62,145 nucleotides of DNA from contig JADZBC010000015.1 of NCBI GenBank assembly GCA_020852295.1, forward strand, positions 1 through 62,145. The letters are read 5' to 3'. The notes beneath the pieces are model-generated. The model ran no database searches, was not told the DNA's origin, and worked only from the letters and a program-made list of their open reading frames with translations. Below are positions 7,226 through 39,536 of this stretch, in pieces (positions within the stretch are counted from its first letter, which is position 1; every line of letters starts with the position of its first letter). Origin of the DNA: a bacterium. Lineage in GTDB: Bacteria > Patescibacteriota > Saccharimonadia > CAILAD01 > JADZBC01. The translations under genes and the position numbers were made by a program.

Positions 7226-9763
7226 TTAGCGATTCACCACTGGCGCAGGGGGCGGTGGTGCACCAGCAGCAGTTGCTATCTTGAGACTTTCAAAAATCTC
7301 TTTTTCAATCTCTGCCTTCGGATGGCCATACTTGGCGCGTGATAGGTCGCGTACTGCCTTGGCAACCACTGGATCGACCGTACCCGTTGCTGGTAGTGTC
7401 TTGAGGGTGAATGGTGTCGTCGGGACCCCTTTGGCAATCATTTTTACAACCGCAGTATAGTTTGGAATATTGACCATGTCATATTGATCAAACTGTGGCG
7501 TAAACTGCTTGGTCATAAACTCAGCATCTTCAGGACCGGTACGAAAACTCATCAGACTACCAACGTTTCCAAAAATCGCCTCCCGAATCTTGTCGTCCAG
7601 CTGACCGATGAACTGGTTGGCCAAGATAAGGCTTAGTCGATATTTACGTGCCTCGGACAAAATAGTCGCGATCGAATCGGTTGAGAAGTTCTGAAACTCA
7701 TCGACGTAGAGGGAGAAGTCGCGGCGCTGCTCTTCATCAATATTGGCTCGACTCATGGCTGCCATCTGGAACTTAATCACAAAAATAATACCCAAAAGCT
7801 GCGAATTAAGATCACCCAGCAGACCCTTACTGAGGTTTACCAGCAGGATCTTACCGTCATCCATTACTTCACGAAGATTAAAGGCTGATTTCTTCTGGCC
7901 GATAATATTACGCATAATCTCATTGCTCGCAAAAGCGCCAAACTTACTCACAAACCACCCAAGCATCTCACTCTTGTGGTAGTCGCTGGTTTGAGCCATT
8001 TCTTTTGTCCAAAAATCCTGGACGGTCGGATCGGTCACATACTTAAACTTTTGTTTGATATAGTCGTTATCGGTAAAAACTTTTGGTATCTCGATAAACG
8101 TGCCGCCCTCTGGATCAGCCATCACGGTTAGCGCAGCGTTGCGGAACCAATGCTCATAGCGCGGTCCAATGATACCTTGGTGTTGCGGGTCGTAGAGTTT
8201 ATAGAGCATCGAAATTGCTTCTTGGATAATGAAGTCTTTTTGTTCAGGATGATCGATATCGTATTCCATGATGTTAAAGCCAAGCGGAAACTCAGTATCA
8301 CCCGGATTGAAATACACAACGTCCTCGCTGCGATGCTGAGGGATCTTAGCCAGGATCTTTTCGGCAGTATCGCCGTGTGGATCGATAAACGCCAGGCCTT
8401 TGCCTGCCTCAATGTCTTGCATGATCAGATTTTCGAGTAAGTTAGATTTACCTGTACCAGTTTGACCAAGTATGTAGAGATGGCGGCGGCGGTCATTATC
8501 ACTCAAGTAGACCGGTGAGGTCACACCACGATACAAATTGTTACCAAGCTGCAGGCCTTCTTTTGGTACCGTATGCGGGGCAGCCACCTCCTTGTGGGCC
8601 GTGCGATCGATTGGGGTAGCATTTGGCATGTTCTCGCTCGGCAAGTGAAAAAGAGTTGCGAGTTCAGCCGATCCGAGTACTACATAGCGCCAGTGAACCG
8701 GGAAAAATCGAAATATAAAATCGGTCGCCAATTGCTGGACTGATCCATAGTTGTAGATTTTAAACCCGTTGTAGCCCGGATTATTAAGCTGCGTAAAACT
8801 ACTCATCATATCTGCGACGATAATTTTGGAGCGCTGGGCGGATGCTGAACTGGCAATGACCCGAATCATACATTCATAAACTGGACCGCTAATCTTCTCA
8901 GTGACCGCCTGACTTTTTTGTTGATCGATCGCATCGGGCTGCTTGTCGGCGGGCTTGGCTTGCTGTTCGCTCTGCGGATTGCTGTATGGCTTCTTGACGA
9001 GTTCGCCGACTGCACTTAGTGCTCCCTTCTTCTCTTCTTTTGGATGCAAGTGACTCTTTGCGATCGATTTCGCTTGACGGTGCCATTTCTTTCGCGCTGG
9101 ACGAACGAGAATTTGGATTGCGGCACCTTCATCGGCGCCAAGCTTAGACATGCTCGCCAAGATGCCGCTCATCGCGTCAAAATCTAAATGTTTATAGCTC
9201 TTAATGGGGTAGTGACTATCATTGGTCATGACCACCGCACCCCCAGCCACACCATCGATCTTACTGACTTGCGAAAAGATATTATGATCCTCTTGTGCTT
9301 CAATCTGGATATCAGGGTAGTTGGCCAATAGAGCCTTCTCAACCATGCTCACAAGACTGATCGGCGCCCCAACATAGAAGAAAATCTGATCGGCGTCGGC
9401 AATGATTTCAAAACTCAAATAGCGCCAACCAAAGATTCGCCGCTTTATGGCTGACTTGCCAAGCAACAGATCGGTCATCGATTTAATTTTCGTGGACCCC
9501 ATGCCGGTGAGCAGATTAAATACACCTTCGGCCCGCGCGATGTATTCCTTGGTCATCTCACGGGAGTCACGATTGTTGGCTTCGTTTCTTTCACTCGGCG
9601 GCAATTTGATCAGCATTGGTACGATCTTGAGCGAACGCTCAACATCTTTGGCGTGCCGGAGAATGCGCCGATAGATAAAAAAGGCAATTGTACCAATAAT
9701 ACCCACTACTATGATGAGTAGCAGGACCATGAACAACGTAAAAGAATTATTTGTCTCGTTCAC
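7226..9763 (-). CDS. VirD4/TraD-like (type IV coupling protein family) membrane P-loop ATPase
   Basis: 845 aa. N-terminal TM helix. Walker A GQTGTGKSN. Walker B-like FSLYVDEFQNF, followed by LSLILANQFIGQL. Overall layout matches T4CP/TraG-D-type NTPases. Confidence 0.65.
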   Translation of the reverse strand: MNETNNSFTLFMVLLLIIVVGIIGTIAFFIYRRILRHAKDVERSLKIVPMLIKLPPSERNEANNRDSREMTKEYIARAEGVFNLLTGMGSTKIKSMTDLLLGKSAIKRRIFGWRYLSFEIIADADQIFFYVGAPISLVSMVEKALLANYPDIQIEAQEDHNIFSQVSKIDGVAGGAVVMTNDSHYPIKSYKHLDFDAMSGILASMSKLGADEGAAIQILVRPARKKWHRQAKSIAKSHLHPKEEKKGALSAVGELVKKPYSNPQSEQQAKPADKQPDAIDQQKSQAVTEKISGPVYECMIRVIASSASAQRSKIIVADMMSSFTQLNNPGYNGFKIYNYGSVQQLATDFIFRFFPVHWRYVVLGSAELATLFHLPSENMPNATPIDRTAHKEVAAPHTVPKEGLQLGNNLYRGVTSPVYLSDNDRRRHLYILGQTGTGKSNLLENLIMQDIEAGKGLAFIDPHGDTAEKILAKIPQHRSEDVVYFNPGDTEFPLGFNIMEYDIDHPEQKDFIIQEAISMLYKLYDPQHQGIIGPRYEHWFRNAALTVMADPEGGTFIEIPKVFTDNDYIKQKFKYVTDPTVQDFWTKEMAQTSDYHKSEMLGWFVSKFGAFASNEIMRNIIGQKKSAFNLREVMDDGKILLVNLSKGLLGDLNSQLLGIIFVIKFQMAAMSRANIDEEQRRDFSLYVDEFQNFSTDSIATILSEARKYRLSLILANQFIGQLDDKIREAIFGNVGSLMSFRTGPEDAEFMTKQFTPQFDQYDMVNIPNYTAVVKMIAKGVPTTPFTLKTLPATGTVDPVVAKAVRDLSRAKYGHPKAEIEKEIFESLKIATAAGAPPPPAPVVNR

Positions 9764-17494: not shown

Positions 17495-18492
17495 AAGTCT
17501 CCTTTGTCCATATTATGGCCTATCGTCTGATCAAGAGCCACCTCGGCGTGCTTACCTGCTCCGAGCTGACTAGCAGACTCAATCTTCGTGCCAAGTCGGC
17601 CATAGCTGGCCGAGGCTGTATCCATAGCATTCTTGGCGTTGTTGAGATGCTTTCCAGCTAGGTTTAGTTCATCGCCAAACTTGCGAGCATCAACCTGTAT
17701 GCCCTTGAGATAATTCATGACCTCCTTAGCCTTCTCCTCGATTAGTTCACCTTCAAGAGCGAGCAGAACGGTGCGCAGAAAGTAGTAAAAACTGTGTGGC
17801 GAAACGAGATACACGCGCTGTGAAGCAGCAAACTCCGACAGATCAGTATTGGTAATAACCTCGTAATATATGGCCTCGCCAGGTATGTACATCAGAGCAA
17901 AATCGACGGTACCCTCACCTGGCAAGATATATTTTTTGGCAATCGCCTGAATGTGTTTTTTGACATCCCCCACAAACAACTTATGTGCCGCGGCACGATG
18001 CTCATCAGTTTGAGCCTGAGTAAAAGCCAAGAAATTCTCTGCCGGAAACTTGGAGTCTACTGGGATGTAGCCGTTTTTTGTCTTGATGATCGCATCAACC
18101 TTCTCGCCGGAACGAAACGCGTACTGCAACTGATAGCTGCCCTTTGGAATCTGTTGCGAGATCAAGTCGTTCATCATTTGCTCGCCAATATTTCCCCTGT
18201 TCTTCGGGCTTTTGAGCGCATCCTGGATGTCTTTCATGCTGCGGCCGAGTTCCTGCATCTTACCAAGTTCATTCTGGAGACTCCCAAAGACCGCAGCAGC
18301 TCGATCAAGCCGATCATTCATATGGGCTTGGGTTTGGTTGAGGGTCTGACTCATACCGACCAGATCTTGCTTGATCAATCCCAAGGCCGAATCGTCTTTG
18401 AGGGCACTTAGTTTTTGATTGAAGTACACAAAAACAAGGCCAAAACCGGCCAATACCACAACCAAAACAATGATGATCAACACCTCTGTCAT
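17491..18492 (-). CDS. rmuC: DNA recombination protein RmuC
   Basis: 333 aa. N-terminal TM helix, coiled-coil region, RmuC-type C-terminal domain (DFALMYIPGEAIYYE, VSPHSFYYFLRTV). 4-nt overlap with trpS. Confidence 0.8.
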   Translation of the reverse strand: MTEVLIIIVLVVVLAGFGLVFVYFNQKLSALKDDSALGLIKQDLVGMSQTLNQTQAHMNDRLDRAAAVFGSLQNELGKMQELGRSMKDIQDALKSPKNRGNIGEQMMNDLISQQIPKGSYQLQYAFRSGEKVDAIIKTKNGYIPVDSKFPAENFLAFTQAQTDEHRAAAHKLFVGDVKKHIQAIAKKYILPGEGTVDFALMYIPGEAIYYEVITNTDLSEFAASQRVYLVSPHSFYYFLRTVLLALEGELIEEKAKEVMNYLKGIQVDARKFGDELNLAGKHLNNAKNAMDTASASYGRLGTKIESASQLGAGKHAEVALDQTIGHNMDKGDL

Positions 18493-18509: not shown

Positions 18510-19346
18510 TTATGCTTCAATCGTGTCGGCTTGATAGCTACCCAGCTCGTACACCGTATTGCCCTGCTGCCGGATCTCGGCAAGTGCTTGTTGGGCAGCT
18601 GAGGCGTGCAGACCGATCTCTATATCAATGTAAAAATAGTATTGCCAAGTTTCTTCAGGTATAGGCCGCGATGAGAGCTTCGTAAGATTGATGCCGGGTT
18701 CAGCAAAGGCTCGCAGGACGTTGTAAAGCGCTCCTGGCTGATGGGCGGTCTTAATAATCAATGATGATTTGTTGTTATCCGCGCTCTCTCGCTGTTCGCG
18801 GCTCAAGACGAAAAATCTGGTGTAGTTTCGTTTGTCGGTTTCAATATCCGATGCGAGCACTGCGAGACCATGGCGCTCAGCTGCCGCACGACTGCCAATA
18901 GCTGCGTAAAATTCATCTGATCCAGCTACAAATTTCGCCGCTTCAGCCGTGTCGTGACGCTCATGAATATCTGCGTGACTCAGCTGTGATTGCAAGAACT
19001 CCTCGCACTGCAAGAGCGCCATCGGATGCGAAAAAACATCAGTGATCTGCGCTAAGACGACCCCAGGCTTCGCCATGAGATTTTGGGAGATACGAAGATA
19101 CTGTTCGCCCACTATCTTGAGCTGATAGCGTCGCAGTAAGTCATAAACTTCATTAATTGAGCCAACCAGTGAGTTTTCGATGGCCACCAGACCATAATCG
19201 GCCTTACTCTGCGCAACGTCATCAAATACTTCACGAAATGAGGCACGAAACAGTCGCGACGTATCACTCGTACCAAAATACTGATTGGCTGCGATATCAT
19301 GAAACGAAGTTTGTTCGCCCTGTATAGAGATAATCGGTTTTGACAT
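18510..19346 (-). CDS. pheA: Prephenate dehydratase (PDT + ACT domains)
   Basis: Start moved to the internal ATG (MSKPIISIQGEQTSFHD). PDT motifs include NYTRFFVLS. C-terminal ACT-like domain (SLIIKTAHQPGALYNVLRAF). TGCTACAAT lies 7 nt upstream of this ATG. Confidence 0.85.
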   Translation of the reverse strand: MSKPIISIQGEQTSFHDIAANQYFGTSDTSRLFRASFREVFDDVAQSKADYGLVAIENSLVGSINEVYDLLRRYQLKIVGEQYLRISQNLMAKPGVVLAQITDVFSHPMALLQCEEFLQSQLSHADIHERHDTAEAAKFVAGSDEFYAAIGSRAAAERHGLAVLASDIETDKRNYTRFFVLSREQRESADNNKSSLIIKTAHQPGALYNVLRAFAEPGINLTKLSSRPIPEETWQYYFYIDIEIGLHASAAQQALAEIRQQGNTVYELGSYQADTIEA

Positions 19347-19353
19347 AGTGGCT

Positions 19354-19362
19354 ATTGTAGCA
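19354..19362 (-). promoter_or_regulatory. Extended -10 box TGCTACAAT, 7 nt upstream of the pheA ATG
   Basis: Minus strand reads TTGCTACAATAGCCACTATG. There is no room for a 5' UTR or SD. Confidence 0.5.
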
Positions 19363-19397
19363 ATTTGCCACACATTAGCCCAGATAATTGCGTCCGT

Positions 19398-19427
19398 GAG
19401 GGTGGAATGGTCGCCCACTCCACCCTC
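19398..19427 (-). terminator. GC-rich 3' hairpin after the WhiB-like gene
   Basis: GAGGGTGGA-N12-TCCACCCTC (9-bp stem). No clear U-tract. Confidence 0.45.
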
Positions 19428-19440
19428 GCGGACTTGTTCG
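19427..19440. repeat. Inverted repeat arm IR1-L (CGCGGACTTGTTCG)
   Basis: Perfect reverse complement of 20856-20869. Followed by TGTACT, as is the other arm. Confidence 0.9.
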
Positions 19441-19453
19441 TGTACTTGTGCGC

Positions 19454-20815
19454 TCAGGCCAGCGCAGCCTCCTCAGCCTCGAGCTCCGCGCGTCGTCGCG
19501 CGATCTCGGCCAGCCGCTGCTGGCGCTCAGCCTCGGCCGCCTCGAGCTCGTCCACCCGATGCTGGAGCGTGGCGTTGCGCTCGGTGAGCTGCTCGACACG
19601 CGCTGCCAGCTGCTCGATGAGCTCCTCGGCCACCCTGTCGGCCTCGGCCTGGGCCTGGCTCGCGTCCTCGTGACGCTCACGCACGGTCCGCAGACCAGCC
19701 TCGACATCGATCGGGTCGAGCTCGACGAAGAGCGTGCCGTCACCAGCGGGTTCGGCCGACGCTGCATCAGCTGAGCCAGCGACCGCAGAGCCGTTGATGC
19801 CCAGCCACTGCCGACCAAGGTCGGTGATGGCGAGGCTCTTCGGGCGCTGCGTGCCCTCCCGGTCGACCAGCCCCGCCTTGACGAAGGCGGAGATGATGGG
19901 CGACAGCTCCGACTTGTCCATCGACAGCTGATCGGCGAGTTCGGCCGTAGCCTGACCCGATGAGCTCTCGATGGGCCCGTTGTCGGCGAGCCACTTCAGG
20001 ATGTCGCGATCGTCCTGATCGAGATCATCTGGTTCTGTATACGTAGCCATCGCTGGCCCTACCTTTCCTTGGTCGCCTCCCTTCTGGGGAGTGTCTTCTT
20101 GGGTTGGTATTGCTGTGGCGCCTGCTGTAGCCAGACCGAATTCGTTGAGCCCCTCTTCAGTTACCAGGTAGCCGATCTGATTCTCCTCACTCTCTTCGAT
20201 CCCCGCGATCCAGCCGCGCACCATCATGCTCGTCAGGAGCTTGAAGAAGCGTCCTTCCGACATGCCGAATCGACGCGCAAAGAGAGCGTCATCATCACCA
20301 GATGGCACGACTACGAGGTTGTTGTCGGCCAAGATGAACTGCACGAGTCGCAGCTGTTCTTCGCGCGATATCACAGGCTCCGGTGAGGCAGGTGCAACGC
20401 TTGGTCTCATTACCGGCTTCGGCGGTAGTCGTGGCGGCTGAAAAGCCTTGTGATCCGGCTCTGCGAGCTGGGGTGCCACGAAGACGTATGTGCCCTCCTT
20501 GCGTTCGATCGCACGCCTTCGGCGAATCCGCCGACGCTCACGCTCTGAGAGTCCGCCCCAAATACCGAACTTCTCGCCAGTGGCGATAGCGTACTCGAGA
20601 CAGAACTCACGTACGACGCAGCCCCTGCAGACCCCCTTGGCCTCCTTCGTCGAGGCGCCACGCTCTGGGAAGAACAGATCTGGATCGACACCGAGACAAT
20701 TGGCGCCATCACGCCAACCCATGTCATCAGTATCAAACCCAGGTTCCCCTTCGGTCTCACCTTCTTCTTCAGCGTCATCATCATCGCCCATGAGGGCGAT
20801 GTCTTCTGCAGACAT
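19454..20815 (-). CDS. WhiB-like (Wbl) Fe-S transcription factor domain fused to wHTH-like segments and a C-terminal coiled coil
   Basis: 453 aa, high GC. Residues about 35-105 match the Wbl pattern: C-X27-C-X2-C-X5-C (NCLGVDPDLFFPE...VCRGCVVREFC), the GIWGG turn, then the basic ERERRRIRRRR. Downstream are MarR/ArsR-like segments (e.g. TAELADQLSMDKSELSPIISAFVKAGLVDREG) and an Ala/Glu/Arg-rich heptad tail. SD AAGGAGGG upstream. Confidence 0.8.
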   Translation of the reverse strand: MSAEDIALMGDDDDAEEEGETEGEPGFDTDDMGWRDGANCLGVDPDLFFPERGASTKEAKGVCRGCVVREFCLEYAIATGEKFGIWGGLSERERRRIRRRRAIERKEGTYVFVAPQLAEPDHKAFQPPRLPPKPVMRPSVAPASPEPVISREEQLRLVQFILADNNLVVVPSGDDDALFARRFGMSEGRFFKLLTSMMVRGWIAGIEESEENQIGYLVTEEGLNEFGLATAGATAIPTQEDTPQKGGDQGKVGPAMATYTEPDDLDQDDRDILKWLADNGPIESSSGQATAELADQLSMDKSELSPIISAFVKAGLVDREGTQRPKSLAITDLGRQWLGINGSAVAGSADAASAEPAGDGTLFVELDPIDVEAGLRTVRERHEDASQAQAEADRVAEELIEQLAARVEQLTERNATLQHRVDELEAAEAERQQRLAEIARRRAELEAEEAALA

Positions 20816-20855
20816 GTGCCCTCCTTGGCCTAGATTTTCAAGCTACACATCTTTG

Positions 20856-20869
20856 CGAACAAGTCCGCG
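20856..20869. repeat. Inverted repeat arm IR1-R (CGAACAAGTCCGCG)
   Basis: Perfect reverse complement of 19427-19440. Lies in the predicted 5' UTR/promoter-proximal region of the WhiB-like gene. Confidence 0.9.
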
Positions 20870-20948
20870 TGTACTAAATCTAAACCTTATCGAGAAAATC
20901 AGCAATGCACAAAATGCACAAAATGCAGCCGCGGATTTGGTGAGAATG

Positions 20949-21458
20949 CTACCATTGCCAAAATGGCTTGGGGACACGTACTTTTTGACTTCTGCGACCG
21001 CCGCCCATCTGATAGCCAGTCATGTCAAAGTATTTTCCCAGTACAGCGAGCCAGTTATGGCGCAGCCATTGGCGCTGATCAAGAAAGAGCTGCTCTAGTC
21101 CTCGCTCGGCAAATTCTCGCCTAATTACACCTCCGCTGTGAGGATGTTGTTGCTTTTGTTGCAACGGTGAGTTAAAGCCATGGGCATAGTGTGTCATTTC
21201 GTGCACGATTGTTGCGCGTATCACGAATTCGGGCACGTCCAGATCTTGAAAGATAGGGTTGACGGTAATGATTGAGGTGACTCGGTCGACTGGATCGAGC
21301 CGGATTGAGCCTAGCTGACGCTTAGCCTTACGCCCATAGACGATTCGTACGTCATTTTGCTGCGGCACATCGATGAAATGTTTGTACCAAATATCAGCCA
21401 GCAAGTTCTCAAGCCACTCCTGATCACGATAGGAATCTTTGACGAGCATTCTACTCAT
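20949..21458 (-). CDS. Putative zinc metallopeptidase (HExxH; SprT/DUF45-like)
   Basis: 169 aa with IVHEMTHYAHG. 4-nt overlap with the upstream helicase gene. Confidence 0.5.
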   Translation of the reverse strand: MSRMLVKDSYRDQEWLENLLADIWYKHFIDVPQQNDVRIVYGRKAKRQLGSIRLDPVDRVTSIITVNPIFQDLDVPEFVIRATIVHEMTHYAHGFNSPLQQKQQHPHSGGVIRREFAERGLEQLFLDQRQWLRHNWLAVLGKYFDMTGYQMGGGRRSQKVRVPKPFWQW

Positions 21459-33821: not shown

Positions 33822-34397
33822 TCAGCCCTCGGCCGCGACCTCCGGGTCGGAGGGCGTGTGGTCGTTCGGGTTCTCGTTGGGCAGGTACTTCCAGCCCGGG
33901 CGACGCGCCTTGCAGGCCTCGATGGCCGGCTTGGCCGCCGCGGCGCGGAGCTCGATGTAGCGGTCCACGATCTCGCAGAACCATCGCCAATCGGACTCCT
34001 GACGGCCGCCGGACACACCGCCCTCGTAGCCGCGGTACTCGCCGGCACCCTCGAAGGGGAAGTCGCCCGGCTCGACCAGATCAGGGCGCGTCAGCGCCTC
34101 GACCGAGTTGCGGCCGGTCCGCAGGTAGAAGCGGATCTTGCCGACGACGTTCATCAGCAGCCCCTCCGGGCCGGTGAACTTGTCGCTCTCCTCGCCGGAG
34201 ATGAGGCCCAGCTCGACCGCGGCCAGGATCTTCTCCGCCGGGTCATCCCAGCTGAGGCCATGGCCCTGCTTCAGGATGATGCAGGCCAGGTCGGTGTCCT
34301 CACCGTAGTTGGTACGGATCAACGGCACCTTCACGTCGAGGAACCAGACGTACATCTGGTCCGAGATGTCGATGCCGAAGCGGTTGTCTGCGGGCAT
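33822..34397 (-). CDS. Hypothetical protein (191 aa, high GC)
   Basis: Balanced amino-acid composition, unlike the overlapping Arg/Ala/Pro-rich antisense ORFs. SD AAGGAGGG 5 nt upstream of the ATG. Own consensus promoter. No family recognised. Confidence 0.6.
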   Translation of the reverse strand: MPADNRFGIDISDQMYVWFLDVKVPLIRTNYGEDTDLACIILKQGHGLSWDDPAEKILAAVELGLISGEESDKFTGPEGLLMNVVGKIRFYLRTGRNSVEALTRPDLVEPGDFPFEGAGEYRGYEGGVSGGRQESDWRWFCEIVDRYIELRAAAAKPAIEACKARRPGWKYLPNENPNDHTPSDPEVAAEG

Positions 34398-34629: not shown

Positions 34630-35328
34630 TCAGGCGCTCGTGGTCGGCGCGCCCTGGTCCACGTCGGAACGCGGCGACAGGTGCTCGTCGCCCATCGAAC
34701 CCTCGGCGGAAGCCGCCGACTCGTCGGTCCACCAGGGCGTCTGGCCCTGGCGCTCGGCCTCGCGGGCCATGCCCTCGTCGAACATCACGGCGAGCCGGTC
34801 GTTCTGCTCGGTGATGAACCGATCGAGGTCGCGCACCAGGTCCTGGTACTTCTCCGTCGCCGTCGTGAGCGCGAGGCGCTCGACGGCGATGAAGTCGTCG
34901 AGCATGGTGTCGTGGTGCGCGTCCGGGTTCTGCTCGTGCCAGAGCACGTGCTTGGCGTTGACCCGTGCCTGCGCCGTGGCCACGTCGGCCTTGGCGTGGT
35001 GGATGGCCACCTCGCGCTGGCTGACCATGGCGGCCAGCCGCTCGACCTCGGCGGAGTGCTCGAGGACCCAGGGCTGGATGGCGCTGGGCGGGGCCGAACG
35101 GATGGCGTCCTCGTAGATCGCCCGGCGGAGCCGGTCGAGACCGGGGCCCTCGACGCCGATGGTGGCGTCGATGACGATGGCGCCGTCGAGCAGGTCACCG
35201 AAGTCGCGCTTGATCATCTCCCGGAGCTGTGGCGGCAGATCGGCGAGCATGTCGTCGATCGAGCCGAAGCCCAGGGTGGTGTCGGTGGTGCTGGTGCTGC
35301 GGCCGCGCAGCAGGTCGAAGAGGTTCAT
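34630..35328 (-). CDS. Hypothetical protein (232 aa, high GC)
   Basis: Start at MNLFDLLRGR, preceded by GAGAAAGAGAGG. Helical, acidic protein with no family recognised. The overlapping 291-aa plus-strand ORF looks like an off-frame artefact. Confidence 0.6.
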   Translation of the reverse strand: MNLFDLLRGRSTSTTDTTLGFGSIDDMLADLPPQLREMIKRDFGDLLDGAIVIDATIGVEGPGLDRLRRAIYEDAIRSAPPSAIQPWVLEHSAEVERLAAMVSQREVAIHHAKADVATAQARVNAKHVLWHEQNPDAHHDTMLDDFIAVERLALTTATEKYQDLVRDLDRFITEQNDRLAVMFDEGMAREAERQGQTPWWTDESAASAEGSMGDEHLSPRSDVDQGAPTTSA

Positions 35329-35407
35329 GGGGAACCTACCTCTCTTTCTCCCCTCGTGGGGAGACAAATTAGAACTGTTTCTAAGCTGTCTTCCCAGAAG
35401 GGAGAGT

Positions 35408-35421
35408 GTCCTACAACTGTC
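35408..35421. repeat. Inverted repeat arm IR2-R (GTCCTACAACTGTC)
   Basis: Perfect reverse complement of 34543-34556. Lies in the predicted 5' UTR of the 232-aa gene. Confidence 0.9.
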
Positions 35422-35456
35422 AAAAAACACAGCCTCAAAAAAAGCTGCGAATTCCT

Positions 35457-36015: not shown

Positions 36016-36996
36016 CTACTCCTTGGTCTCCTTCTCTACGGTGCCGACGTTGTGGCCGTCGTAGCGGATCTGGACCCGCCCTTCGTCACGACCGGCGTTG
36101 ACCGCTCGGATCCAGGCGTCTCGCATGGCCCGTTCGGCCTCATCGGTTGGAAGATGCTCGAAGTCACGCGGCGAGATCGGGTCGCAGACCACCGCCAGCA
36201 CCACCCGCCGCCAAGGCAGGAATCCTGGTCGGATGATCGGATCGTCCTGCGAGACCCCCACGATGGCGATGGGCAGCAGCGGCACGCCGGTACGACGCGA
36301 CACCCGGATGGCTCCGAGGAAGCCGCCCTCCACCGTACTGGAACCCTTGCGGGTACCTTCGATGAAGAACTCGGCACTGAAGCCCTGGTTGATCCGTCGC
36401 TCCACCTCGATGAGGGCCTCCTCGGGCTTGTACGAGCGCATCTGGAGACGATGGATCTTGTCCAGCCGGTTGTGCTTCGGGTGGTAGCGGCCGTCCAGCT
36501 GGGGTCGGAACATCGGGAAAGCCCCGTTGATCAGGCACCAGTTGGCCAACCAGCGCGGTCCGCTGACGAACCACGGCTTGCAGGTCCACACCAGCGGTCG
36601 TCGGAACGACCCCGTGATGAGGATGTCCCGCTCATCGGCGTGCGTTGGCGCCACGATGATCGGCCGCTGACCGCGGTTGTCGATCGGTGCCTTGGTGCCT
36701 CGCAGGTAGAAGCGGGAGTACTGCTTGAGTCCCCCGGGCACCTTCTGCTTGTCGATGAAGACGCGCTTCACCAGCAGGCTGCCGATCAGCAGGATGAATC
36801 CCCGAAAGAAGGGGTACTCCCACCAGCTGCCGCGACCAGTCGCCCGGCGCAGGAACTTGCGTCGCTGGGCGTCCTCCTCGTCGGTGAGGAGCCAGGGCAC
36901 GATGTCACCCTTCTCGAAGTCCTCGTCGGTGACGACGGTGCCATCCGGCAACGTGTACTTCCGAGGCTCCATCACTGGCTTCATTGGTGCTGTCAT
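36016..36996 (-). CDS. Lysophospholipid/1-acyl-sn-glycerol-3-phosphate acyltransferase family protein (PlsC-like)
   Basis: 326 aa, high GC. HX4D catalytic motif (APTHADERD), FIEGTR block, TM segment FFRGFILLIGSLLV. Confidence 0.78.
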   Translation of the reverse strand: MTAPMKPVMEPRKYTLPDGTVVTDEDFEKGDIVPWLLTDEEDAQRRKFLRRATGRGSWWEYPFFRGFILLIGSLLVKRVFIDKQKVPGGLKQYSRFYLRGTKAPIDNRGQRPIIVAPTHADERDILITGSFRRPLVWTCKPWFVSGPRWLANWCLINGAFPMFRPQLDGRYHPKHNRLDKIHRLQMRSYKPEEALIEVERRINQGFSAEFFIEGTRKGSSTVEGGFLGAIRVSRRTGVPLLPIAIVGVSQDDPIIRPGFLPWRRVVLAVVCDPISPRDFEHLPTDEAERAMRDAWIRAVNAGRDEGRVQIRYDGHNVGTVEKETKE

Positions 36997-38400: not shown

Positions 38401-39098
38401 ATGCCTAACAAACGTAAAATAGACGCAAAAAGCAAGAAAAAGTTACAGGCCATTAGAAAAGGCTATAAGAAAAAATAGGCACTGACCCTTCCGAGAGTAC
38501 CCTTGAGAAACTCAGTATCAAAGAACTCAACAGATACTATAAAATTGGCATAAAACGTAAAACCTGGATAATAGGTCTGGCTTTACTGTTGCTAGTTCTC
38601 GGAGTAGGCGGATACGTCTTTGCTGCACAAAATATATTCACTTCTGATAATCCGCCAATCAGTAGTGATACTCCAGATAAAACGAGTAAAATACCACTAC
38701 AATCAAAACCCTCTACTGGGTCCCCAAAAAATAGCAATGCGAATAGCGCCTATACCCCTGGAGTCTGCACCAAGACTGTTATCCCTTCAAAAACAATCTA
38801 CAAGGATGACCCCCAAGTAAACGAAGGAACTACTTATCTAGCTGTAACAGGACGAGATGGGTATAAGGAGACTTGCACTGCTGACTCAACTGGATATGTT
38901 ATACCTCCTAGTACTGTACCAGCTATCGATTATGTATATGTTCGCGGTACGAAGAAAGCAACACCAGCACCCTCCAACACACCAAGATATTCATATGCTG
39001 AGGTTATGGCTATTGCACAAAATCAATGCGCACAATATAGCGGTTCTAGTGCATACAACCAGTGCATTAATGCCGTTCTAAGGCAGTATGGATACTAA
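38401..39098 (+). pseudogene. Membrane-anchored secreted protein (G5-like domain) interrupted by a frameshift at an A6 tract
   Basis: TATAAT (38373-38378), AGAGGA SD and the ATG at 38401 open a 25-codon ORF that stops at 38476. The domain-bearing frame is open from 38469 to 39098 but has no ATG or SD before the TM helix. The frames differ by -1 at AAAAAA (38470-38475). Confidence 0.5.
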
Positions 39099-39148: not shown

Positions 39149-39536
39149 TGGTGGAGCTGCCGGGAATCGCACCCGGGTCCATCAGACCGTTCAGATAGCC
39201 AACTACAAGCTTAGTTTGCTTGGTATTTGTTTGAAAAGATCACGAGGCTTTAAGCAAACCAAAAACTCCGTGCGCTTTCCCTAGAGAGTCTTAGTGCTTT
39301 GCCCTAGGCAGCAAAACAAGCAATCAGATGTATTGACGCCCTCACCTATATCTGATGTCTAGATGAATGGACGGCATTCGAATTTAAGCGAATGCTGGTG
39401 CAAAAGTAGGCATGGCAAAAGCCGCGCGTACTTTGCTAGCAAGTGATTTTACACTTATTTGGGTTGGACAGCTAACGTGTATCCAGCCGGCTTGCGTCTA
39501 TCTGTCAAGTTACCGATGTCGAAGCTAAACAGCCCC
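39149..39536 (-). ncRNA. ssrA: tmRNA (transfer-messenger RNA)
   Basis: Minus strand starts GGGGCTGTTTAGCTTCGACATCGG and ends GGACCCGGGTGCGATTCCCGGCAGCTCCACCA (T-arm, acceptor stem, encoded CCA). An internal frame ending GCA TTC GCT TAA gives a candidate tag. smpB is present in the window. Confidence 0.9.

Follow-up and report, generated by a model that had tools for sequence, protein, structure and literature searches.

We found that a 62,145-nt stretch of contig JADZBC010000015.1 (positions 1 to 62,145 of the forward strand, hereafter the window, 62 kb) from a Saccharibacterium carries a gene for a 453-residue fusion protein with a WhiB-like (Wbl) core, two winged-helix modules and a long C-terminal helix. 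We put the probability at about 0.6 that this protein is an acquired, self-contained sigma-docking activator that works in the Saccharibacterium and whose DNA-recognition modules are swappable. It belongs to a known family but occurs in a phylum where that family is unexpected; its architecture is undescribed, and its allele structure is unusual. According to reviews up to 2026, the Wbl family is exclusive to Actinobacteria and their phages (PMC6282962, PMC13013590), and our literature search found no report of a Wbl gene in the Candidate Phyla Radiation, Saccharibacteria or TM7. The present gene lies outside that confinement, on a Saccharibacteria chromosome. The gene and the segments of its product (amino acid residues, aa) are as follows.

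19454-20815, minus: Wbl fusion gene, 453 aa, ATG start, stop codon at 19454-19456 (from the list of open reading frames, ORFs)
20819-20826, minus: Shine-Dalgarno sequence AAGGAGGG, 3 nt 5' of the ATG (direct sequence reading)
20717-20815, minus: acidic N-terminal tail, aa 1-33, variable between alleles
20516-20716, minus: Wbl core, aa 34-100, with W34, C40, F48-F49, C63, C66, C72, the EKF-GIWGG turn (W86) and the RERRRIRRRR tail
20378-20515, minus: Pro-rich linker, aa 101-146, probably disordered
20111-20377, minus: winged-helix-like module 1, aa 147-235, a diverged copy of module 2, hypervariable between alleles
20048-20110, minus: conserved junction block, aa 236-256, containing QKGGDQGKVGPAMAT, between the two variable modules
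19781-20047, minus: winged-helix module 2, aa 257-345, MarR/ArsR-like, hypervariable between alleles
19724-19780, minus: Ala/Ser-rich linker, aa 346-364, containing the 3' limit of the allele-divergent tract
19457-19723, minus: long C-terminal helix, aa 365-453, a probable coiled coil and the highest-GC part of the gene (GC at third codon positions, GC3, 0.81)

The Wbl core and its extension

An earlier note on this DNA had recognized a textbook Wbl core, and the profile search bore this out: aa 34-96 matched 64 of the 65 positions of the Pfam Whib profile (PF02467) with 80.9 bits, where the cutoff is 23.6. All motifs quoted in that note (NCLGVDPDLFFPE, VCRGCVVREFC, GIWGG and a basic tail) are present in the product, as is the strong Shine-Dalgarno sequence that it had claimed. 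Its cysteine spacing, beginning with C-X27, was wrong; the real pattern is C-X22-C-X2-C-X5-C (C40, C63, C66, C72). The family is defined by four cysteines, a Gly-rich turn and an aromatic patch (W3, F17, F18 and W60 of WhiB1) that docks on sigma region 4 (PMC13013590). In our protein the four cysteines are invariant across the aligned relatives (alignments A1 and A3). Also invariant are the Gly-rich β-turn G84-I85-W86-G87-G88, which fits G[V/I]WGG, and the four residues of the aromatic patch (AP1-4: W34, F48, F49 and W86), with W34 lying six residues before the first cysteine as in WhiB1. The core ends in a positively charged tail, SERERRRIRRRRAIERK (aa 90-106). The best solved relative was Streptomyces WhiB in the complex of RNA polymerase, sigma, WhiA and WhiB (8DY7_H; 93 bits, ~65% identity over aa 30-100), and other Wbl structures scored lower (WhiB1, 58 bits; WhiB3, 48; WhiB7, 31). 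The triplet before the turn is E81-K82-F83, compared with ERF in WhiB2. By its sequence the core is classed as WhiB/WhiB2 (class II Wbl), and it probably binds a [4Fe-4S] cluster through C40, C63, C66 and C72.

The structure prediction that the earlier note had proposed for the extension was made with AlphaFold2 (AF2) on a shallow alignment, and yielded a confident winged helix-turn-helix (wHTH) and a single long helix. Module 2 forms a canonical wHTH over aa ~262-340 with an H-beta-H-H-beta-beta topology and a predicted local distance difference test score (pLDDT) of 94-97. In Foldseek its top 50 matches were mainly MarR/ArsR-type wHTH structures, some of them DNA-bound, with root-mean-square deviations of ~2.7-3 Å over 75-82 residues. 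Pfam scores stayed below or at the cutoffs (MarR, 23.7 with a cutoff of 24.6; MarR_2, 23.8 with a cutoff of 27; HTH_IclR, 22.0, equal to the cutoff). Module 2 is thus a MarR/ArsR-like wHTH that lies outside the MarR family (PF01047 / PF12802) by profile threshold. Module 1 was modelled as helices at aa 151-163, 174-182 and 187-208 with pLDDT of 51-75, and HHalign aligned it with module 2 over 67 columns (probability 93%, E = 2.9e-7). The C-terminal part was predicted as one 82-residue helix over aa 371-452 (pLDDT 95-98), whereas pLDDT was below 50 in the N-terminal tail and 42-52 in the Pro-rich linker. Thus the acidic tail, the two wHTH-like segments and the coiled coil of the earlier description were all recovered, module 1 with less confidence and the coiled coil as a long predicted helix.

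The extension is rare. By BLASTP, the window protein (P0001) shares it only with P0002, which is the allele of strain L011, with P0004, a 527-aa relative in L009 and L010, and with P0005; the C-terminal helix is homologous to the C-termini of P0004 and P0005. A search of 1.8 billion representatives returned four matches, three of them genuine (P0086-P0088), which are small stand-alone wHTH proteins with 38-43% identity to module 2. The fourth, P0085, was rejected as a spurious match to a low-complexity repeat protein. The C-terminal part gave no match in two metagenome scans, and a genome scan with the whole fusion protein gave none either, the patterns being too allele-specific. A typical Wbl protein has a single domain of ~80-140 aa, which is usual for the family without strictly defining it; the present protein has 453 aa and three extra modules. 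The description "oversized" nevertheless needs tempering, because long Whib fusions are common in metagenomes.

Relatives of the core were much more numerous. Actinophage records (712 of them) matched aa 32-90 only, with at most 65% identity, and IMG/VR viral contigs matched the core only, with at most 72% identity; none of either carried the extension. With matches restricted to the core at these levels of identity (at most 65-72%), a direct phage donor was unsupported and was set aside. A single search yielded 83 relatives that share the core subtype and are 250-720 aa long, and many proteins in this size range have closer cores (77-88% identity). The nearest, at 87% identity, lie in actinobacterial-type contexts with Rv0959/Mb0984-type domains, UPF0182, LCP-LytR_C and short Whib paralogues; PucR-like regulators also occurred in the contexts sampled for the closer cores. 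A phylogeny of the core, which had been suggested as a way to locate the donor clade, was star-like and did not resolve that clade; P0001 and P0002 each lay nearer to the actinobacterial consensus than to the other. The core is of actinobacterial type, judged from the gene content of these contexts, and fits an acquisition from Actinobacteria, with a star-like tree that pinpoints no donor. Actinobacteria are the known hosts of cultured Saccharibacteria, which are obligate epibionts.

Allele mosaic and chromosomal slot

The gene was placed in its genome by means of its two neighbours.

20949-21458, minus: upstream neighbour p169, 169 aa, conserved in Saccharibacteria and carrying an HEMTH motif (69% identity to the copy in L009)
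18510-19418, minus: downstream neighbour, prephenate dehydratase with an ACT domain (Pfam PDT + ACT)

These flanks agree with the earlier description, which had the prephenate dehydratase gene downstream and, upstream, the 169-aa gene together with a UvrD/PD-(D/E)XK helicase. The window consists of packed housekeeping genes (gyrA/B, PheST, TrpS, ArgS, aldolase, tmRNA and RNase P RNA) and also encodes surface proteins and an ATPase resembling the coupling protein of a type IV secretion system (T4SS; 7226-9763). We used p169 as an anchor for synteny and taxonomy to probe species-representative genomes. The probe found 27 loci, whose record labels were only Candidatus Saccharibacteria, Saccharimonadia, Patescibacteria or metagenome-assembled genome (MAG). 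The backbone ArgS-AddB-UvrD-p169-(PDT)-RmuC-TrpS-PheS-PheT-YkuD is common to the window and all 27 loci, and the whole window is collinear with these genomes. The genome is accordingly of the Saccharibacteria type, as had been supposed, and a low-GC actinobacterium as the host was ruled out by the p169 relatives and the shared backbone.

The composition of the gene contrasts sharply with its flanks, as would be seen if an assembly chimera, actinobacterial contamination on a Saccharibacteria contig or a low-GC actinobacterium had produced the picture. However, the identical 453-aa product is encoded in eight independent assemblies, which came from different samples and used different assemblers, and each of the eight contigs is 99.8% identical to the window across both junctions, which answers the concern of the earlier note about chimerism. 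A second allele (L011) and a distant orthologue (L009) occupy the same slot, and all 27 p169 relatives are Saccharibacteria with which the window is collinear. An artefact is thus effectively refuted.

L011 is a close strain, with a synonymous divergence (pS) of 0.09-0.20 in the PDT, RmuC and TrpS genes, but its allele is only ~50% identical overall to the window protein. Nucleotide identity to L011 is 95-100% up to the start codon, drops to 13-77% from codon 1 to about codon 364, and then returns to 92-100% (from ~19720). Synonymous sites are saturated (pS 0.78-0.94) in the N-terminal tail, core and module 1, the tail having a pS of 0.94 and 24% aa identity. The pS of module 2 is high (0.60; 30% aa identity), and aa 101-235 show 24% aa identity between the alleles. 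In contrast, the 21 codons of the junction block have a background-level pS of 0.14, with a 49-nt stretch 98% identical to L011 amid unalignable DNA, and the C-terminal helix is 98% identical in aa with a pS of 0.12, again at background. Since the divergence is saturated in the variable parts and at background level in the junction block and C-terminal helix, the map indicates an exchange of cassettes. The N-terminal tail, core and recognition modules appear to be anciently diverged cassettes that were swapped between strains by recombination at conserved junctions, and the alleles probably differ in DNA specificity. The core has a nonsynonymous divergence (pN) of 0.11 against a pS of 0.78 between the alleles, indicating that it is under purifying selection. 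Recent hypermutation or a mechanism like that of diversity-generating retroelements was ruled out by the saturated synonymous sites and the purifying selection on the core.

A more distant relative fills the same slot in L009 and L010, a lineage ~52% identical to the window in backbone proteins: P0004 shows 34% identity over 92% of the length. The GC3 is ~0.70 in both alleles of the window species and 0.53 in the L009 orthologue, where it is native. The earlier note had taken the gene for a regulator captured from the host or an actinophage. The actinobacterial-type core agrees with this, but the phage matches do not support a direct phage donor, and a simple recent capture is not supported because a full-length relative with native GC3 occupies the same slot of a lineage only ~52% identical. 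For the comparison with sister genomes proposed in the earlier note, a tblastn search, in which the positive controls worked, covered the 27 species up to 10 kb from the slot and detected a Whib core in none of them (0/27). L021, the closest relative of L009 (91% identical backbone proteins), lacks the gene; there 2.3 kb of L009 is replaced by 0.5 kb that contains only a diverged zinc-ribbon ORF. These results show that the Wbl gene is accessory: it was inserted at a variable slot into an otherwise conserved Saccharibacteria backbone, and some lineages only have it. A single old gain followed by repeated loss could explain the distribution, as could transfer among Saccharibacteria.

The same slot also holds a 119-aa CxxC...CxxC zinc-ribbon ORF (L009, 9446-9805; L021, 10554-10913). 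The DNA of this ORF is unalignable between L009 and L021 though the flanks are 83% identical, and it is thus another fast-evolving occupant of the slot.

Composition, borders and neighbouring genes

The gene has a GC content of 0.626 compared with 0.497 for the whole window, and the flanks on either side have 0.43-0.50. The rise is uneven, with 0.70-0.72 in the 3' third (19400-19900) and 0.55-0.63 elsewhere in the gene. The hand counts of the earlier note (27/60 at 18001-18060 and 44/60 at 19501-19560) were exact on recounting. The gene is not the only high-GC feature of the window, since three further ORFs at 33.8-37.0 kb are even more extreme. A comparison of codon usage between the gene and the rest of the window, also suggested there, gave a GC content at synonymous third positions (GC3s) of 0.686 against a mean of 0.503 (SD 0.060) for the 32 other genes (z = +3.1). 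The GC excess is not merely an amino-acid effect, because synonymous sites are also shifted.

33822-34397, 34630-35430 and 36016-36996, minus: three high-GC ORFs of 191, 266 and 326 aa, GC 0.64-0.67, GC3s 0.84-0.93, z = 5.6-7.1

Homologues of these ORFs lie in the same slot of L125 (flanks ~72% identical in nucleotides), with protein identities of 27-66% and a GC3 of 0.83-0.94. Because this other island keeps its GC3 in a relative, in the same slot, GC alone is a weak argument for transfer, and we set aside GC as proof of a recent transfer. That several genes keep an actinobacterial-like GC3 in fixed slots across species hints at an epibiont gene set tuned to, or recombining with, the host gene pool. 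The three ORFs gave only a weak Acyltransferase match, and the spacers between them have ordinary GC. The 326-aa protein has only four relatives in 5.8 billion clusters. An outlier in the direction opposite to the Whib gene is a 169-aa ORF at 38589-39098 with a weak G5-domain match (GC3s 0.30, z = -3.4). A tmRNA at 39149-39536 on the minus strand has a predicted tag peptide, VKSLASKVRAAFAMPTFAPAFA, that ends in AFA, not the common LAA.

Several features mark the borders of the Wbl gene.

20856-20869, minus: upstream arm of a 14-nt inverted repeat, CGCGGACTTGTTCG (repeat search)
19427-19440, plus: downstream arm of the same repeat, 13 nt past the stop codon (repeat search)
19392-19433, minus: hairpin with 19-nt arms (89% complementary) and a 4-nt loop, directly 3' of the Wbl gene, with no U-tract after it
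20903-20927, minus: tandem TGCATTTTG repeats, ~2.5 copies, in the upstream spacer, identical in L011

The 14-nt inverted repeat is perfect, brackets the ORF exactly and has only these two copies in the window. It is kept in all eight assemblies and in L011, and is absent around the L009 copy. Its two arms may bring the mRNA ends together by pairing, or they may be left over from the arrival of the cassette. AGTACA precedes each arm on the gene strand. The TGCATTTTG repeats are a candidate operator. A scan of the upstream spacer and gene end found no convincing sigma-70 promoter or canonical terminator. As the earlier note had stated, the gene is inserted between housekeeping genes without an integrase or transposase in the window; nor did the 62 kb contain a recombinase or other phage gene. 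The window has no tRNA genes, and the repeat search detected no flanking direct repeats at the Wbl gene.

The GTG annotated as the start of prephenate dehydratase overlaps with the hairpin. N-termini of prephenate dehydratase relatives align from MSKPIISIQG onward, and the true start is probably an ATG near 19346 rather than the annotated GTG. With this start, the hairpin would be intergenic. L009 likewise has a hairpin directly after the stop codon of its Whib gene. The prephenate dehydratase gene itself is patchy, adjoining p169 in 4 of the 27 related species (L025, L031, L035 and L042); Saccharibacteria are known for minimal biosynthesis.

Proposed mechanism, alternatives and known Wbl systems

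In the mechanism that we favour, the protein would act inside the Saccharibacterium as a self-contained transcription activator. The C-terminal helix, as a probable coiled coil, would dimerise the protein, and the modelled winged helices would recognise a specific operator. The Wbl module would dock through its predicted aromatic patch (W34, F48, F49 and W86) on region 4 of the primary sigma factor, while the Arg-rich tail may touch nearby DNA. A cluster labile to oxygen and nitric oxide would make the activity redox-dependent. The His-Pro docking pair in region 4 is generally conserved in primary sigma factors, and for this reason the epibiont's own sigma factor is a plausible target. Class II Wbls work together with WhiA and do not themselves contain a DNA-binding domain (PMC6282962), and no whiA gene was found in the 62-kb window. 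A single chain may thus unite the roles that are split between WhiB and its DNA-binding partner WhiA in Actinobacteria.

Several points weigh against an acquired activator of this kind. Hypervariable recognition modules are unusual for a housekeeping regulator and suit a conflict-related or host-directed role at least equally. The Wbl core was modelled poorly by AF2 (pLDDT ~45-65), as expected without the cluster, and its fold is assigned from sequence. The sigma factor of the Saccharibacterium and any WhiA homologue are encoded outside the window, so that docking compatibility is assumed from the His-Pro conservation. The absence in 27 species covers 10 kb around the slot, the taxonomy of the "actinobacterial-type" contigs was deduced from gene content, and the core tree cannot separate one acquisition from several.

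A role directed at the host is an improbable alternative. A WhiB2-like protein would be delivered, for example by a T4SS, into the actinobacterial host, where it would dock on sigma A and misdirect or block the cell-division genes of WhiB2/WhiA. It would resemble the WhiB of mycobacteriophage TM4 but would have its own swappable DNA-targeting modules that track host variation. The core belongs to the class that controls cell division in Actinobacteria and is 87% identical to actinobacterial-type cores, and TM4 WhiB, which antagonises host WhiB2, is a precedent (PMC6282962). Conflict genes typically show such ancient alleles that are exchanged and whose differences cluster in the recognition modules, and GC3 is shifted toward actinobacterial values. 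The window encodes the T4SS coupling-protein-like ATPase, and according to a preprint (10.1101/2025.01.22.634366) epibiotic growth requires the T4SS of Saccharibacteria, which has no relaxase. However, the protein has no signal peptide or recognisable secretion signal, and no observation in this analysis shows its export. The T4SS-like gene is 10 kb away in the conserved backbone and is present also in Whib-less genomes, the L009 orthologue has native codon usage, and the delivery of a protein with an oxygen-labile cluster is mechanistically demanding. A bolder form, which we consider highly improbable, is that exchangeable wHTH cassettes on a mimic of WhiB2, docked on host sigma A through its near-consensus actinobacterial core, would retarget the host RNA polymerase, for example to cell-division genes, and that the alleles reflect an arms race.

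Two other histories concern the origin of the gene rather than its target. The Wbl fusion may go back to the common ancestor of a large Saccharibacteria clade, with many later losses and with a raised GC that is a property of this gene and no trace of recent transfer. Such a history is consistent with the filling of the same slot in two lineages only ~52% identical in backbone proteins, with the homology of the extensions (BLASTP E = 2e-12) and with the native GC3 in L009; the GC3 of 0.83-0.94 kept across species by the other island shows that a high GC3 need not mean a recent arrival. We nevertheless regard it as unlikely, since it needs at least 4-5 independent losses, one of them in a relative (L021) 91% identical to L009, and since the cores resemble the actinobacterial consensus more than one another, in a family that is elsewhere actinobacterial or actinophage. 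Even if it were true, an earlier transfer from Actinobacteria would still be the likeliest ultimate source. Alternatively, a small non-autonomous element, mobile or derived from a phage and delimited by the 14-nt inverted repeats, may have brought the gene in or may still contain it as cargo; the gene would then serve this element, for example in superinfection exclusion or defence, and not the regulation of the cell itself. The perfect repeat around the ORF, unique in the window and kept in both alleles, would suit such a cassette, as would the patchy occurrence at a hotspot slot shared with the fast-evolving zinc-ribbon ORF, the hypervariable alleles and the frequency of Wbl genes in actinophages (712 phage records). 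This is quite unlikely, because the 62 kb contains no integrase, transposase or phage gene and no second copy of the repeat or cassette, the phage and IMG/VR matches (at most 72% identity) cover the core without the extension, the L009 copy lacks the repeat, and the repeat could instead pair the mRNA ends.

Among known proteins, class II Wbls (Streptomyces WhiB, Mycobacterium WhiB2 and Corynebacterium WhcD) share with the window protein the four cysteines, the FFPE pair, an E-x-F triplet before G[I/V]WGG and the Arg-rich tail. They are, however, ~87-130 aa long, have no DNA-binding domain and depend on WhiA, whereas the Saccharibacterium protein, at 453 aa, carries a pair of winged helices and a long helix in addition. 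Closer in size are long Wbls of uncultured Actinobacteria-type genomes (P0003, P0017, P0026, P0033 and ~75 others), which have the same core subtype, C[LM]GVDPDLFFPERGAST...GEKFGIWGG, at 77-88% identity. In several of them the N-terminal core is followed by repeated helix-rich segments that MAFFT aligned with the winged-helix modules. They differ in that their extensions have no BLASTP-detectable homology to the window protein, they have no C-terminal coiled coil, and they sit in another conserved locus, in the order LCP-LytR_C, long Whib, LssY_C and P-type ATPase. One such locus is L012 9540-11164 (similarly L014, L123 and L124), where LCP-LytR_C, sometimes a 100-aa Whib, a 379-454-aa Whib with helix-rich repeats, LssY_C and a P-type ATPase lie together; the L012-type lineage is apparently actinobacterial. 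Long Wbl fusions seem to be common in uncultured Actinobacteria, and the Wbl literature examined names only WblP.

Known fusions of Wbl with a sigma factor or AT-hook are precedents for joining a Wbl core to a transcription or DNA-binding function (PMC6282962), and the partner here, a pair of MarR/ArsR-like winged helices with a coiled coil, is unlike either. Actinophage WhiB proteins, such as that of TM4, are alike in placing a Wbl core outside an actinobacterial chromosome in an entity that exploits Actinobacteria, but they are short and have no extension. Module 2 shares the wHTH fold of MarR/ArsR regulators without the MarR dimerisation helices, and the C-terminal helix would dimerise the protein instead. 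The divergence map resembles that of HsdS of type I restriction systems, which likewise has two recognition modules, conserved helical or junction segments and module swapping by recombination, but no sequence or fold relationship to the window protein. HsdS is thus only an analogy for how the allele mosaic could arise.

A chromosomal, conserved and evidently selected Wbl gene in Saccharibacteria breaks the rule of actinobacterial exclusivity. Since cultured Saccharibacteria are obligate epibionts of Actinobacteria, it points to a gene flow from hosts to epibionts that reaches the core transcription machinery. It has long been puzzling how Wbl proteins, which lack a DNA-binding domain, attain specificity for DNA; the present protein seems to contain the function of the partner and would offer a simple system for testing the geometry of Wbl, sigma and DNA. 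The mosaic suggests a reshuffling of regulator specificity inside one species; for a transcription factor this is unusual, and it may be connected with host range.

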